Virus record (IMG/VR): IMGVR_UViG_2663762948_000001
Location: 1-28,068 of that record
Reading direction: 5' to 3' (one strand)
DNA: 28,068 bases
DNA from: a virus
Lineage: Duplodnaviria; Heunggongvirae; Uroviricota; Caudoviricetes
This document shows, one piece after another, positions 22,434 through 27,445 of this stretch. Below the pieces are notes generated by a model. The model saw only the letters and a program-made list of their open reading frames with translations. It was not told the origin of the DNA and did not search any database. The position numbers were made by a program, and so were the translations under genes. The first letter of the stretch is position 1. The number at the start of each line of letters is the position of its first letter.

Positions 22434-23810
22434 TCATACGTCAGCCCCTTGTGCATATCGTCTGCCACGCGCAGCAGGTGCATTTGATGTTGTGCAAATC
22501 TGTCTGGCTTCATCCTGGTCACATGCAACAAAGTGTCCGTTGCAGAACCGCTGGTAAACCGTACCAAGCGAGCCAAAACGGTTTTTCGTCACAATGATTT
22601 CAGCAAATGGCGCGGCGCTACTGTTCTCGTCATATACCGCTTCCCGATAGAGCATGATGATTGAGTCTGCGTCCTGTTCAATGCTTCCTGAATCACGCAA
22701 ATCTGCGTTTGTCGGGCGTTTGTTTGGTCGCTTCTCAACATCGCGCGAAAGCTGACTCAGGGAGATAACGGGCGTTTTCAGGTCTTTCGCCATCGCCTTC
22801 AGGCTTCCGGAGATGTGAGCAATTGCGAGGTCGTTGCGGTCTGCTTTCGGCTTCTCAATCAGGCCAAGATAATCCACCATGATGAGTGAGAGGTTTGGAT
22901 TTTCCTGTTTGTGCCGTTCTGCGATTGAGCGTATTTCTTCGACCGATAACCGCGAGGCATCGACTACCCATACATCCAAATCTGCAAGCTGACTCATGCC
23001 GTTAGCAACGCGCGCCCAGCCTTCGTCATCCATCGCTGCAGGATTTCGCAGCACACTAACCGACATCCTCCCGGCGTTGGCAATGCTTCGCTCTGCAATC
23101 TGCAATGCGCTCATTTCCATTGAGAAAATCAATACCCCGCGCCGGACGTCAGAACCAGGAATAACGCGGCTTGCAACGCCTTCGGCAATCTTCAGCGCCA
23201 GTTCGGTTTTCCCCATACCAGGACGAGCAGCGATTATCACCAGGTCTTCCGCGTTCATCCCTCCGGTGATGGCATCAAGTTCTTCGATTCCGGTCTTCAG
23301 GGTATCTGACTCTTCTCCGTTCCTCAGACGCCTGTCAAGCGTGTCAGTGTAGTCAGTGATGATTTCCCCTAACCGTACAGGTTTAACCTCGTCACGGGGC
23401 TTTCTGATGGCTGAAAGACGCTTTACAAGCTCATCCATCGCCTGACTCGATGCGTCGATGGTTCCGCTCTGAATTGGTTCACGCATTTCATCCATGATTT
23501 CCAGCACCAGACGGCGGTGATAGTTATCCGCGACCATTCCGGCATATCCCTTCAGGTTTGCGGCACTCGGGCAGTTTTTGCTGGTCATCAGGATTGACGT
23601 GAAATGCTCCTCTCCGCACGCCTCGGCAACCATCAGCGCATCGATTAGGTTTCTGTTTCTCGCCTGCTTGCGGATAACCTCGAAGGCTTTCCGGTAGAGC
23701 GGAATTGAAAACGCTTCCGGCTCCAGCGTTGCCAGAACGTCGCTGGCGGTTGGTGTTAATCCACCAATCAGCAGGCCACCGATAACGCTCGCTTCGATAT
23801 CCTGTCTCAT
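22434..23810 (-). CDS. Replicative DNA helicase (DnaB family)
   Basis: 458 aa with Walker A ARPGMGKT and DnaB-like C-terminal motifs; ATGA overlap with O. Confidence 0.9.
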
Positions 23811-24628
23811 GCAATCCCCCTGTCTGCAAACTTCCCTTCCCGTACTCCCGTTAACGAATCTTCCCTCAGCAGGTAATCAAAATCAGCTGTCCAGCCCGTG
23901 TCGTTGTCTCCGAAGTAAAACGGCTTGGCCTGATGCACAAACGCCCTGACATACGCTCTGAAACCGTCCACGTTTGGCGTTTTCAGTTGCGGGATGATTT
24001 TCTTCAGGCGGCGTTTGCGTTTCTCGTTGACCGCAACAGCGTGTGGCAGTCTGTCACCGACTTCGGTGTTGTAGGCGTTCAGGAAGGATTCGTAGTCGAT
24101 TCGTTCTGCCTTGCGACGTTCAGGTTTAACCTGCCCATCGCCGCCCCCGTTAGGGGGTAAGGGGGTATTTGTATTTATTGTCTTTTGTATATTGTCTTTT
24201 GTGTTTAGCTGACTTGGCTTATACCCATTAGCCGACTTGGCTAATGTTTTATTAGCTGTTTTAGCTAATGTTAAGCTGTCCTGGCTAATCCACTGCGAAA
24301 CCACCTTGTTCACTCCGATTTTCACGCCATCAGCAATGAGGAATTTACGCTCGATAAGCTGGCGCTTGGCAGCGCAAACATGAGTGTGATGAATACCTGT
24401 CATGGCTGCTATCTGCGTGTTTGTGAGTCGATCCATCGGCTTATTGAATCCGTATGTCTTGCGCATGATAGCGAGCATCACCTTCAACTGCCGGACGGTT
24501 AAATCAGCCATCAGCAGACTGTCGGTAATCTCGTTAGCAACGCGCATGAAACCATCTTCGGTATCTGCCACGCGATGCTCCACGACCTCAAGTTGAGGCC
24601 TGTAATCAGCTAACTTAACGACGCCCAT
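23807..24628 (-). CDS. O: Replication initiation protein O
   Basis: 273 aa; N-terminal ...[28 protein letters not shown]... resembles the lambda O N-terminus; contains the ori iterons. Confidence 0.8.
24165..24290. repeat. Replication origin: four about 18-bp iterons plus an AT-rich tract inside O
   Basis: Iterons TTAGCTGACTTGGCTTAT (24205..24222), TTAGCCGACTTGGCTAAT (24228..24245), TTAGCTGTTTTAGCTAAT (24252..24269) and TAAGCTGTCCTGGCTAAT (24272..24289), each partly palindromic; adjacent AT-rich tract 24167..24204 with repeated TTGTCTTTTGT. Confidence 0.6.
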
Positions 24629-24810: not shown

Positions 24811-25089
24811 TCAGGCCTCGAAGAATTCGCCGTTCTTCGGGGCTTTTTCTTTTGTCAGCATTCTGGCTACTTTCTTAGCCAGTTCCGCCAACTCCTCGTC
24901 TTCAACACCCCATTCAAGAACAGCAAGAAGCATTCCCATTTTGGGGATGAAGCTGTCTTTCCATCGCGAAATTTGCGATTCATTAATCCCTAACGCGTCG
25001 GCAACCTTTCGCTGACCACGTACAGCAATTCGATTCAGGATGTTGCTTGTAATTGCATTCGCTTTCTTGCGAGTACTTGTAAGTTGCAT
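24811..25089 (-). CDS. cII: Transcriptional activator cII
   Basis: 92 aa with ...ESQISRWKDSFIPKMGMLLAVLEWGVEDEEL..., closely resembling the lambda cII core; AAGGAAAT RBS. Confidence 0.8.
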   Translation of the reverse strand: MQLTSTRKKANAITSNILNRIAVRGQRKVADALGINESQISRWKDSFIPKMGMLLAVLEWGVEDEELAELAKKVARMLTKEKAPKNGEFFEA

Positions 25090-25197: not shown

Positions 25198-25392
25198 CTA
25201 TTTGTTTTTCTTGTTGCTTGGGAAAGGACGAACTTCCTCTCCAATCACACTGCCATCAGGCTTTACCGTAACCATAATGTTACGGCCTGCCAGAATGGCC
25301 TTGCTGATAGCGCACTGGATTACACCAAAGTCACTGGCTGCTTTAGCCTGTCCATGGATTTTGGCGTAATCGGCAAGTGTCATTCGAATCAT
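25198..25392 (-). CDS. cro: Cro repressor
   Basis: Start [15 protein letters not shown] at ATG 25392 (the ORF track start at 25398 is GTG); ...[17 protein letters not shown]...PFPSNKK resembles lambda Cro. Confidence 0.8.
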
Positions 25393-25421
25393 ATGCACTC
25401 TCCGTTATTAACCATGAACAA

Positions 25422-25488
25422 AGAATACTACAGGTATTCAAAGCAATCAATACTCAGGGTATTTTTAGTTTAAGTACCTTAGCTATTA
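25422..25488. promoter_or_regulatory. OR operator cluster with divergent pR and pRM
   Basis: 17-bp palindromes GAATAC-TACAG-GTATTC (25423..25439) and CAATAC-TCAGG-GTATTT (25448..25464), plus a degenerate third site (25472..25488). Minus-strand pR is TTGATT (25450..25445), 17 nt, TATTCT (25427..25422). Plus-strand pRM -10 TAGAAT (25487..25492) sits 6 nt before the cI ATG, implying a leaderless cI mRNA. Confidence 0.55.
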
Positions 25489-25498
25489 GAATTAAGCT

Positions 25499-26215
25499 AT
25501 GGAAAATAAAAAATCACTGACGACAGAACAGCTCGAAGACGCTAAGCGGCTTAAGGCTTTGTATGAGTCAAAAAAGAAAGAATTGGGAATAACCCAATAC
25601 TCAATCGCTGATGAACTGGGTATCACCCAAGGAGCGGTAGGGCATTATCTTAATGGCAGAAACGCGCTAAACGTTGAGGTCGCATCTGGTTTTGCACGTT
25701 TGTTGCAAGTCTCAATTGCTGATTTTAGCCAGTCAATTGCTGCCAAGGTTGCAGAACAGGCAGAAAGCCTTAAGAGCGATGCCAACGTAAGGTATGCAGG
25801 GGAATACAGAGCAGGAAAGAGGTATCCGGTGTTAAGCAGTATCCAGGCTGGCTCGTGGTGTGAAGCATGCGAACCATACACCATTAAAGACATAGATGTT
25901 TGGCTTGAGTCTGACGCGCATATTCAAGGTAATGCGTTCTGGCTTAAAGTGGAAGGTGATTCAATGACGGCACCGGTTGGGTTAAGCATTCCAGAGGGAA
26001 CATTCGTTCTTTTCGATACCGGAAGGGAGGCGATCAACGGCAGCTTGGTCATAGCAAAACTTTCTGACTCTAACGAAGCAACATTCAAGAAGCTGATAAT
26101 CGACGGCGGAAATAAATACCTCAAGGGACTTAATCCTGCATGGCCTCTCGTGCCAATCAATGGAAACTGCAAGATTATAGGCGTTGCAATTGAGACAAAA
26201 CTAAGGCTGGTTTGA
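25499..26215 (+). CDS. cI: cI repressor (HTH plus LexA-like S24 autopeptidase domain)
   Basis: 238 aa; N-terminal ...LTTEQLEDAKRLKALYESKKKELGITQ... resembles lambda cI; C-terminal domain has the Ser/Lys dyad context (...GDSM...FKKL...). Confidence 0.85.
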   Translation: MENKKSLTTEQLEDAKRLKALYESKKKELGITQYSIADELGITQGAVGHYLNGRNALNVEVASGFARLLQVSIADFSQSIAAKVAEQAESLKSDANVRYAGEYRAGKRYPVLSSIQAGSWCEACEPYTIKDIDVWLESDAHIQGNAFWLKVEGDSMTAPVGLSIPEGTFVLFDTGREAINGSLVIAKLSDSNEATFKKLIIDGGNKYLKGLNPAWPLVPINGNCKIIGVAIETKLRLV

Positions 26216-26232
26216 TCACGCAAGGGGCGATT

Positions 26233-26601
26233 ATGGTTGGAACCGCTATAGCAAGCTTTTTTGGGATGTTGGCAATCTCGACAATTTACGGCTTAGCGCA
26301 TGCTTTTATTGCGAAATCTCTATCAGAAAAAATAAGCCAGGCTTGGGCGCATAGATCAGCTCGTTTCATGATTCTGGTGATCATAGCAATACAAGGGATA
26401 TCTGCATTTATCCTCTATGGATCAAGCTTATACCTATTGTATCAAGGCGCGACATTTACGCCTTACACCAGTGATTACGGAACTCTATACGATGGTAGTG
26501 AAGACATCACTGTGGCTTGGATCGTCTTTGGTTTATCTATGGCCGTGTCTGTTGTAGCAGACATCATTAAGGTAATTCTCGTCTTAACCTTCGCTGACTA
26601 A
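26233..26601 (+). CDS. 3-TM membrane protein co-transcribed with cI (rex position)
   Basis: AAGGGG RBS 5 nt before ATG 26233 (the ORF track start at 26212 is TTG); 122 aa with three hydrophobic helices; begins 18 nt after the cI stop. Confidence 0.55.
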   Translation: MVGTAIASFFGMLAISTIYGLAHAFIAKSLSEKISQAWAHRSARFMILVIIAIQGISAFILYGSSLYLLYQGATFTPYTSDYGTLYDGSEDITVAWIVFGLSMAVSVVADIIKVILVLTFAD

Positions 26602-26731
26602 CCTATAATCCCGGCAGCAATAGCTATCGGGATCCACTTCACATATCCCGCATAAAAAGCACTGAACAAGCAGAAACCGAAAAAATAAATATCCTTTGTA
26701 TTCATTTGCTTATCATTATTTCATCAAAAAT

Positions 26732-26774
26732 AAATACCTTGGGTATTTACACAATAAAATACCTACAGTATTCT
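26732..26774 (+). promoter_or_regulatory. OL operators with pL
   Basis: AAATAC-CTTGG-GTATTT (26732..26748) and AAATAC-CTACA-GTATTC (26757..26773), same half-sites and 25-bp spacing as OR; candidate pL -35 TTTACA (26746..26751) and -10 TATTCT (26769..26774). Confidence 0.5.
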
Positions 26775-26819: not shown

Positions 26820-26862
26820 GGCTCTTTAACATTGATGGGATTGTCCCGCCGAAATGCGGGAA
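26820..26862 (+). promoter_or_regulatory. nutL (boxA plus boxB)
   Basis: GCTCTTTAAC, a spacer, then TCCCGCCGAAATGCGGGAA, identical in boxA and boxB to the nutR element on the other strand. Confidence 0.6.
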
Positions 26863-27172
26863 CCAAAGAGTAGTTGGCTTTGGGGTGACGTGAAGTGCAG
26901 CTGCACGACGGCAACCGGAAGATAAGCACCCGGCGCGTCACCGCCAAAGTCAATTCCATAGGCGAAATGCAGCCGCCAAACACAGCCAATGCTGCACATG
27001 CAACAGGAGGATTTATGTGAATGCATAACTTCAAAACCGAGGTTAATTAAATCTCTCGATCCGAGCATTGACCTATTAGGTGGCGAGATGCTCTTTCTGC
27101 CCCTCAGTTCGAGGGGCCAGAAACCACTTTGCAATCACTATCAATTCCAAAGTTGTTTCATCGGAGGTCAAC

Positions 27173-27445
27173 ATGACAGTAGTCATTACATATCTGGCTG
27201 ACGATAACGCCAGAAATCGCCGCAGAGCACGCAGACAGGCTCAACGTGAACAGGCAATGCAAGAGCAGCGACTGACGCGAAAAATTGCGCTAAAGCTCTC
27301 TGGTTGCGTCAGAGCAGATAAAGCAGCATCACTCGGAAGCCTTCGCTGTAAGGAAGAAGATGAACGCAGTGGAAGTATTTGCCTGCCAAACGTAGCTCTT
27401 TACGCGGCAGGATACCGGAAATCAAAACAACTGACAGCGAGGTAA
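27173..27445 (+). CDS. N: Antiterminator N
   Basis: GGAGG RBS; ATG 27173 is the first in-frame ATG; 90 aa with N-terminal arginine-rich motif DDNARNRRRARRQAQREQA like lambdoid N proteins. Confidence 0.7.
   Translation: MTVVITYLADDNARNRRRARRQAQREQAMQEQRLTRKIALKLSGCVRADKAASLGSLRCKEEDERSGSICLPNVALYAAGYRKSKQLTAR

Follow-up and report, generated by a model that had tools for sequence, protein, structure and literature searches.

hkaS, an accessory gene between cI and OL in HK620-type immunity regions, encodes a predicted three-helix membrane protein

Small inner-membrane proteins with which a resident phage excludes superinfecting phages are known from several systems, including T4 Imm, P22 SieA, HK97 gp15, and lactococcal Sie2009, and Sie2009-type genes are also found in the lysogeny module beside the repressor. 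Here we analyzed a 28,068-nt stretch of tailed-phage DNA (Caudoviricetes; IMG/VR record IMGVR_UViG_2663762948_000001, positions 1 to 28,068), referred to as a whole as the window, with a focus on hkaS, a gene located between the repressor gene cI and the leftward operators (OL) of a lambdoid immunity region at the right end of the window. HkaS may resemble the above proteins, as it is predicted to be a small membrane protein and its operon layout points to expression in the lysogen. The action of Imm, SieA, gp15, and Sie2009 on DNA entry has been shown experimentally, whereas for HkaS such an action is a hypothesis, and HkaS matched no named exclusion, defence, or membrane family in PHROGs, Pfam, or PADLOC. 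Our tentative reading is that HkaS is a lysogen-expressed inner-membrane anti-phage protein directed against heteroimmune phages.

Genes on the transcript of pRM, the promoter that maintains repressor synthesis, are accessory and usually exclude other phages, as is the case for rexAB, 933W stk, and hex (PMC3564112), and the interval between cI and N, described as a hotspot of mosaicism, is also home to the abortive-infection gene bstA (PMC8585504). A preliminary description of this DNA had assigned hkaS to the rex position and to a type of locus that carries exclusion or abortive-infection genes. Both assignments hold: hkaS lies upstream of OL3, OL2, OL1, and pL as the positional equivalent of lambda rexAB, and the two studies cited agree on the character of the locus.

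Three systems from this interval are the closest points of comparison. In lambda, rexAB and cI share a transcript from pRM (PMC8585504), and the same is predicted for hkaS and its cI. RexB and, by prediction, HkaS are small polytopic inner-membrane proteins encoded in the same cI-OL slot of the cI operon; however, RexB has 144 aa, four helices, and RexA as a partner, whereas HkaS has 122 aa, three helices, and no RexA. In phage 434, hex directly follows a related cI on the pRM transcript, and Hex both confers heterologous exclusion and inhibits RecA-stimulated repressor cleavage (PMC3564112). Unlike HkaS, Hex is a 134-aa protein of unrelated sequence with a signal-peptide-like N-terminus and no polytopic membrane character. 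BstA of the Salmonella prophage BTP1 is likewise encoded by a single gene immediately after the prophage repressor, is highly expressed in the lysogen, and acts by abortive infection (PMC8585504). By contrast with HkaS, it is reported to localize to phage DNA replication sites and not to the membrane, and its locus contains the self-immunity element aba (PMC8585504); no homology between the two proteins was detected, as HkaS has no PADLOC match. It is worth noting that the annotated Hex (L093 2409-2813, lambda imm434) begins with MIRIAALLSILLTTSANSEC. This signal-peptide-like start is hard to square with the published cytoplasmic role, and a GenBank note states that the paper inferred the wrong start codon.

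hkaS as an accessory gene of HK620-type immunity regions

The open reading frame (ORF) is not new as such, having been catalogued since 2001 as hkaS of phage HK620 (AAK28867.1) with the product listed as 'unknown'. Its only PHROG match is to family 6534, of unknown function, and covers the entire length (E = 2.4e-79, residues 1-122 on profile positions 1-122 of 122). A 505-nt segment with the ORF shares 98.6% identity with HK620 and 99.8% with mEpX2, in which the copy is mEpX2_043, and the same segment is present in HK630 (as 'HkaS protein'), HK140, HF4s, two podoviruses of enterohaemorrhagic Escherichia coli, and two phages converting to Shiga toxin 2c (Stx2c). The gene order cro - OR - cI - hkaS - OL/pL - nutL - N, in which OR denotes the rightward operators, is identical in the window, HK620, and mEpX2. 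Because the window is otherwise similar to the HK97-like siphoviruses mEpX1, mEp234, and HK75, the immunity module is mosaic relative to the virion type: here it sits on an HK97/mEpX1-like siphovirus backbone, whereas the HK620 backbone is P22-like. Overall, the module accompanies unrelated virion types, including the podovirus HK620, the siphoviruses mEpX2 and HK140, and the Stx2c phages.

Among 5426 complete E. coli genomes, 146 (~2.7%) carry hkaS, at 147 places that are all chromosomal and all labelled 'hypothetical protein'; the names given to members of its sequence cluster are without exception 'hypothetical' or 'uncharacterized'. The E. coli hosts come from animals and humans, and the family is also present in prophages of Salmonella, Enterobacter, Hafnia, and Buttiauxella. 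A literature search on hkaS, the HK620 immunity region, the mEp phages, genes downstream of cI, and superinfection exclusion returned no functional study of hkaS.

Many ORFs of ~100 aa in the window are spurious. hkaS is a coding gene rather than one of these chance ORFs, as judged from the PHROG match, indel-free homologues, the ratio of nonsynonymous to synonymous substitution rates (dN/dS), and the lack of internal stops. Seven homologue lineages, from E. coli, Hafnia, Salmonella/Enterobacter, Buttiauxella, and three metagenomic sources, are 44-83% identical to each other; all encode exactly 122 aa with zero indels, including homologues at only 44-52% identity. All 91 copies at related loci are intact, with internal stops in none (0/91). 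Between the window and the Hafnia type, at which distance synonymous sites are unsaturated, dN/dS is ~0.14 for hkaS and 0.03 for cI. The corresponding dS values of 0.69 and 0.76 are nearly equal, which indicates joint inheritance of both genes. Across 78 IMG/VR loci of the E. coli type, cro, cI, and hkaS are equal in synonymous diversity (piS 0.020-0.027), while piN is 0.0070 in hkaS vs. 0.0004 in cI, a ~17-fold difference, and piN/piS of hkaS is 0.26. Thus, hkaS is under purifying selection that is clearly weaker than that on cI, a pattern expected of accessory cargo. The GC content is 42% in hkaS, 46% in cI, and 50% in the whole window. A common polymorphism of two residues among near-identical E. 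coli prophages (ITV vs. ISM, residues 92-94) is located at the periplasmic end of the third helix.

It could be argued that hkaS is a neutral hitchhiker, or an untranslated ORF trapped between cI and OL, given that any DNA in this interval co-segregates with immunity, that 25 years of annotation have yielded no known function, and that its amino acid diversity so far exceeds that of cI. We consider this very improbable: the dN/dS and piN/piS values contradict it, no indel has accumulated across the divergent lineages, disrupted copies are absent from the 91 loci and the 147 E. coli places alike, and both the ribosome-binding site (RBS) and the charge pattern of the protein loops are conserved.

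A cI homologue lies 17-20 nt upstream of hkaS in 90 of the 91 related loci, the remaining locus being cut at a contig end, and the counts of cI in the complete E. coli genomes are the same as those of hkaS (147 places, 146 of 5426 genomes). Much of this linkage is positional, since DNA between cI and OL travels with the immunity specificity. Homology blocks containing hkaS usually extend to the left through cro and cII and end on the right at ~26860-26950, between nutL and N, so that one and the same nutL occurs with different N alleles; N and the flanking genes for replication and recombination differ among loci. This right-hand junction is the commonest one, with homology stopping there in 64 of 80 IMG/VR loci.

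A Buttiauxella prophage (locus L011) separates hkaS from the operators. Its cI is chimeric (L011 2333-3420), with an unrelated N-terminal DNA-binding domain (26% identical to that of the window cI) and a C-terminal domain that is 88% identical, and a clear mosaic joint is seen in the cI linker. The prophage has a different cro and TTAAG-type operators at both OR and OL, yet an hkaS gene (56% identical) follows 20 nt after cI, and a canonical intrinsic terminator (ACCCGGA...TCCGGGTTTTTTATT) follows hkaS. The retention of hkaS despite swapped operators indicates that it is not tied to operator specificity; rather, hkaS and the 3' half of cI move together as a cassette.

The slot behind related repressors need not be occupied and its contents vary, a behavior that identifies them as accessory. 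The slot is empty in Bas106, ST64T, and mEp235, contains a DNA methyltransferase gene in P13374, and holds rexAB in lambda. ENT39118 has a cI C-terminal domain 77% identical to that of the window and no hkaS, and 434, with a C-terminal domain 71% identical (52% overall), has hex in place of hkaS. We therefore regard hkaS as a genuine accessory (moron-type) gene in the cI-OL cargo slot of the HK620-type immunity region.

From the gene layout, hkaS would be carried on the cI mRNA, with pRM driving its transcription in the lysogen and pRE doing so during the establishment of lysogeny, and HkaS would be translated from its own Shine-Dalgarno site; the gene lies outside the pL and pR lytic operons. 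Because pL fires away from hkaS, pRM and pRE are the only promoters expected to serve it, and its expression should be limited to lysogens and to the establishment of lysogeny.

Predicted membrane topology and candidate functions

The preliminary description took the ORF to be a real gene for a protein with three transmembrane (TM) helices, and the PHROG match, conservation, hydropathy, and AlphaFold2 all bear this out. Three hydrophobic stretches reach Kyte-Doolittle peaks (19-residue windows) of 1.67, 2.29, and 2.28, corresponding to predicted helices TM1 (~2-27), TM2 (~45-72), and TM3 (~92-121). The AlphaFold2 model (mean predicted local distance difference test 89, predicted template modelling score 0.76) has helices at 2-29, 31-38, 41-74, and 89-121 and a short beta-hairpin within loop 2. 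The two loops differ in charge in 7/7 lineages, with +3 to +5 for the basic loop 1 (28-44) and -1 to -4 for the acidic loop 2 (73-91), and the positive-inside rule accordingly predicts a small polytopic inner-membrane protein with an N-out/C-in topology.

Conservation is unevenly distributed over the protein. The predicted cytoplasmic loop is best conserved (mean pairwise identity 0.66), with the motif K-I/V/T-S/T-Q-x-W-x-H-R/K-x-A-R-F, in which K33, Q36, W38, H40, A43, and R44 are invariant and F45 opens TM2. TM3 follows (0.62), with invariant W96, D110, K113, and a C-terminal VLTFAD, while the periplasmic loop is least conserved (0.48) and constant in length across lineages. The invariant polar residues S16, Y19, Q54, D110, and K113 are each 8-11 residues away from the cytoplasmic end of the respective helix and, given this similar distance, should lie at about equal depth in the membrane.

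Database searches with HkaS returned little beyond the family itself. An exhaustive hmmsearch of 1.84 billion representative proteins recovered only its own cluster and one fragment, and all 12 matches in a word-indexed search of 5.8 billion proteins were family members. Matches in Pfam were all sub-threshold noise (Cation_ATPase_C, with 17.6 bits and a cut-off of 27.3, and TssN), NCBIfam gave no match, and no PADLOC-DB v2 defence profile matched at E <= 10. Foldseek found nothing in the PDB or BFVD at E <= 0.001, the best hits (E ~0.3-0.4) being helical hairpins or generic helical bundles. By these searches, HkaS is an orphan family. Homology to a housekeeping or structural protein, named in the preliminary description as grounds for abandoning an exclusion role, was looked for in Pfam, PHROG, NCBIfam, and the 1.84-billion-protein profile search and was absent.

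Two other identities were considered and rejected. A class I holin of the lambda S type would also have three TM segments and an N-out/C-in topology, in agreement with the prediction for HkaS; however, HkaS ends with ...VLTFAD at the end of TM3 without a charged cytoplasmic tail, its gene lies in the immunity region rather than in a late lysis cassette, and no holin family was among its Pfam or PHROG matches. Homology to 434 Hex or Sf6 gp38 was likewise dismissed (hhalign probability 0.06%).

The position and predicted promoter that hkaS shares with lambda rexB invite the suggestion of a RexB-like mechanism of abortive infection, in which oligomers of HkaS would form an ion channel or pore in the inner membrane that opens upon infection, depolarizes the membrane, and sacrifices the infected cell. 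HkaS is likewise small and polytopic, and its helices contain an invariant pair of charged residues as well as a conserved stripe of polar ones (TM3 S102, S106, D110, K113; TM2 Q54). Nevertheless, we think such a pore unlikely. The preliminary description had not recognized the protein as RexB, and rightly so: hhalign gave a probability of 0.6% (E = 0.1 over 21 columns), no RexB family was among the Pfam or PHROG matches, and HkaS has three hydrophobic helices instead of four. In addition, the cI-OL interval is otherwise empty of conserved ORFs and provides no RexA-like sensor gene, and HkaS itself has no soluble domain with which to sense infection.

The strong conservation of the cytoplasmic loop, together with the behavior of the cassette, bears on a possible role in the lysis-lysogeny switch. 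HkaS might tune prophage stability as 434 Hex or lambda RexA/RexB do, and could do so through RecA-stimulated cI cleavage or host proteases, possibly via the cI C-terminal domain. Hex, which lowers RecA-dependent induction (PMC3564112), follows a 434 cI that is among the closer outside relatives of the window cI, and in the Buttiauxella prophage hkaS was kept beside the closely similar cI C-terminal domain while the DNA-binding domain, cro, and both operator sets were replaced. However, HkaS is unrelated to Hex, only ~17 of its residues face the cytoplasm, the related C-terminal domain of ENT39118 does without hkaS, and adjacency alone predicts co-inheritance with the 3' half of cI. We therefore view a switch modulator as improbable.

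It is also conceivable, albeit with a low probability somewhat above that of such a modulator, that HkaS represents a new class of stand-alone membrane effector. It would then either mediate sensor-less exclusion or abortive infection, detecting or blocking the entry of phage genomes through an intramembrane polar D110/K113/Q54 site, or be coupled to the cI C-terminal domain; the latter coupling would explain why this domain and hkaS persist as a cassette in the Buttiauxella prophage.

Lysogen-expressed membrane proteins can also serve the host, lambda Bor and Lom being examples, and this precedent counts against an anti-phage role. HkaS might thus confer a fitness benefit by lysogenic conversion that is unrelated to phages, altering envelope physiology in terms of stress, bacteriocin, or antimicrobial tolerance, or of transporter activity. 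The predicted expression of hkaS is specific to lysogens, prophages of E. coli, Salmonella, Enterobacter, Hafnia, and Buttiauxella widely carry the family, and selection on it is purifying but relaxed, as for accessory cargo; moreover, the bstA locus was initially reported as a virulence factor (PMC5322425). By contrast, no significant match to a transporter, immunity, or stress family was found in Pfam, NCBIfam, or PDB-based searches, and the characterized genes of this slot are mostly anti-phage (PMC3564112, PMC8585504). On balance, we rate a host-fitness role as unlikely, on a par with the RexB-like pore.

The anti-phage reading that we tentatively prefer holds that HkaS, at the inner membrane, would protect the lysogen from superinfecting heteroimmune phages. 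The likeliest mode would be interference with genome entry across the inner membrane, i.e., superinfection exclusion, with membrane-permeabilizing abortive infection as the second choice. A block of genome entry fits better than sensing and killing because HkaS, a small membrane protein, lacks both a soluble domain and a partner gene.

Several observations weigh against an anti-phage role. No homology to a known defence, exclusion, or abortive-infection protein was detected with PADLOC, PHROG, or the 1.84-billion-protein profile search, fold searches of the PDB and BFVD yielded generic helical bundles only, and the literature search gave no expression or phenotype data for hkaS. The strict linkage to cI could be purely a matter of position, as DNA between cI and OL is bound to the immunity region. 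Furthermore, the most conserved surface is predicted to be cytoplasmic, contrary to what simple binding of incoming phage proteins in the periplasm would predict. Altogether, the interpretation in the preliminary description is partly supported: the position, the operon logic, and the distinction from RexB hold, and the exclusion function is a hypothesis.

Layout and transcript signals of the immunity region

The immunity region and the adjoining genes are listed in Table 1. hkaS had been described as a 122-aa gene placed right after cI with a good RBS, within a range (26216-26610) that brackets the ORF, and the layout corroborates this: the ATG is the 18th base past the final base of the cI stop (a spacer of 17 nt), and the hkaS stop codon occupies 26599-26601. 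An AGGA-type RBS is found at the equivalent position in four divergent lineages. An alternative TTG start at 26212 (129 aa) was rejected, as TAA immediately precedes the ATG in the Salmonella-type module; a lineage-specific AGGA-type site before the ATG in every lineage also disfavors it.

Table 1. Coordinates of features in the immunity region and neighboring genes of the window.
Feature	Position	Strand	Remarks
Replication gene, lambda P position	22434-23810	-	458-aa product
O	23807-24628	-	
cII	24811-25089	-	
cro	25198-25398	-	66-aa ORF, divergent from cI across OR; matches HK620/mEpX2 cro annotation; Pfam Cro in homologous loci
OR1	25424-25438		AATAC-N5-GTATT, 0 mismatches; agrees with transferred HK620 annotation
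OR2	25449-25463		AATAC-N5-GTATT, 0 mismatches; agrees with transferred HK620 annotation
OR3	25473-25487		AATAC-N5-GTATT, 2 mismatches; agrees with transferred HK620 annotation
Probable pRM -10 hexamer	25487-25492	+	TAGAAT, 6 nt 5' of the cI ATG; read from sequence
cI	25499-26215	+	238 aa; Pfam HTH_3 (E = 5.2e-24), Peptidase_S24 (E = 8.1e-10); PHROG 4
hkaS RBS	26222-26227	+	AAGGGG, 5 nt before the ATG
hkaS	26233-26601	+	Predicted three-helix inner-membrane protein, 122 aa
Stem-loop	26608-26633	+	ATCCCGGCAGC / GCTATCGGGAT; 7 nt past the hkaS stop
OL3	26688-26702	+	Operator pattern, HK620 annotation
OL2	26733-26747	+	Operator pattern, HK620 annotation
OL1	26758-26772	+	Operator pattern, HK620 annotation
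pL	TTTACA 26746 to TATTCT 26774	+	Spacing 17; promoter scan; overlaps OL2 and OL1
nutL	26820-26861	+	boxA GGCTCTTTAAC, boxB hairpin CCCGC..GCGGG; transferred from HK620 annotation and read in sequence
N antiterminator	27173-27445	+	First pL-operon gene; Pfam N_peptide (E = 5e-16), PHROG 271

The window cI is 99.6-100% identical to the HK140 and mEpX2 repressors, and all six operator sites match the pattern AATAC-N5-GTATT, four of them perfectly. The probable pRM -10 hexamer was absent from the consensus promoter scan, as would be consistent with a promoter that has a weak -35 and depends on an activator. The cI start follows this hexamer closely and lacks a Shine-Dalgarno sequence, suggesting that the cI mRNA from pRM is leaderless or nearly so, as in lambda. 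With its strong RBS, hkaS may exceed cI in translation efficiency on the shared transcript. The scan found neither a promoter-like nor a terminator-like site between cI and hkaS, and no internal hkaS promoter of the lambda pLIT kind within cI.

The stem-loop behind hkaS has an unexceptional folding energy (z = -1.5) and is not followed by a T-run. In every lineage a hairpin occurs past the hkaS stop, with different hairpins in the equivalent place in divergent lineages. Together with the textbook terminator in the Buttiauxella prophage, these hairpins support an end of the transcript just past hkaS. The stem-loop is a probable 3' end or stabilizer of the cI-hkaS transcript, and its action as a terminator is uncertain. 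An Rfam scan of the window found no RNA family.

The GenBank coordinates of tIMM and OL3 in HK620 map to 26683-26713 and 26710-26726 of the window, respectively. These positions differ from that of AATATCCTTTGTATT (26688-26702), the best match to the operator pattern and a site conserved across all divergent modules, and the sole hairpin 3' of hkaS also falls outside them. The published HK620 annotation of tIMM and OL3 may therefore be shifted.

A hydrophobic 35-aa ORF on the minus strand (26598-26705), convergent with hkaS, was considered as a partner or small toxin and rejected. In divergent immunity modules this ORF has 10 aa (L003) or 3 aa (L007) or is missing (L008), and the part conserved at its 5' end corresponds to the OL3 operator. 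The ORF is therefore very probably spurious. It appears to have been annotated as a second 'hypothetical protein' in some phage records.

With regard to the replication genes, counterparts of the gene in the lambda P position in related loci encode DnaB and DnaB_C helicase domains, and hence it is not a lambda-P-type loader. This DnaB-type gene represents one alternative replication module accompanying the HK620-type immunity region.

Implications for prophage cargo and phage exclusion

Few prophage loci are transcribed as strongly in lysogens as the cI-OL slot, which is the source of rexAB, hex, stk, and bstA. With hkaS, this slot has a compact occupant that consists of one gene without detectable relatives and is also found in Stx2c-converting phages. 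What is new in the present analysis is its orphan status, its strict synteny, the measured purifying selection, the conserved topology, the intramembrane charged pair, and the recognition of the cargo-like slot.

If HkaS couples to the C-terminal domain of cI, the state of the membrane would be linked to the lysis-lysogeny switch, and a role in tuning induction, if true, would bear on the stability of Stx phages. If HkaS is instead an anti-phage protein, as we tentatively propose, it would constitute a new family of prophage-encoded defence and, with 122 aa and no partner gene, would offer a simple model of phage exclusion by a membrane protein. Such a role would be relevant to host range in phage therapy and to the ecology of Stx phages.

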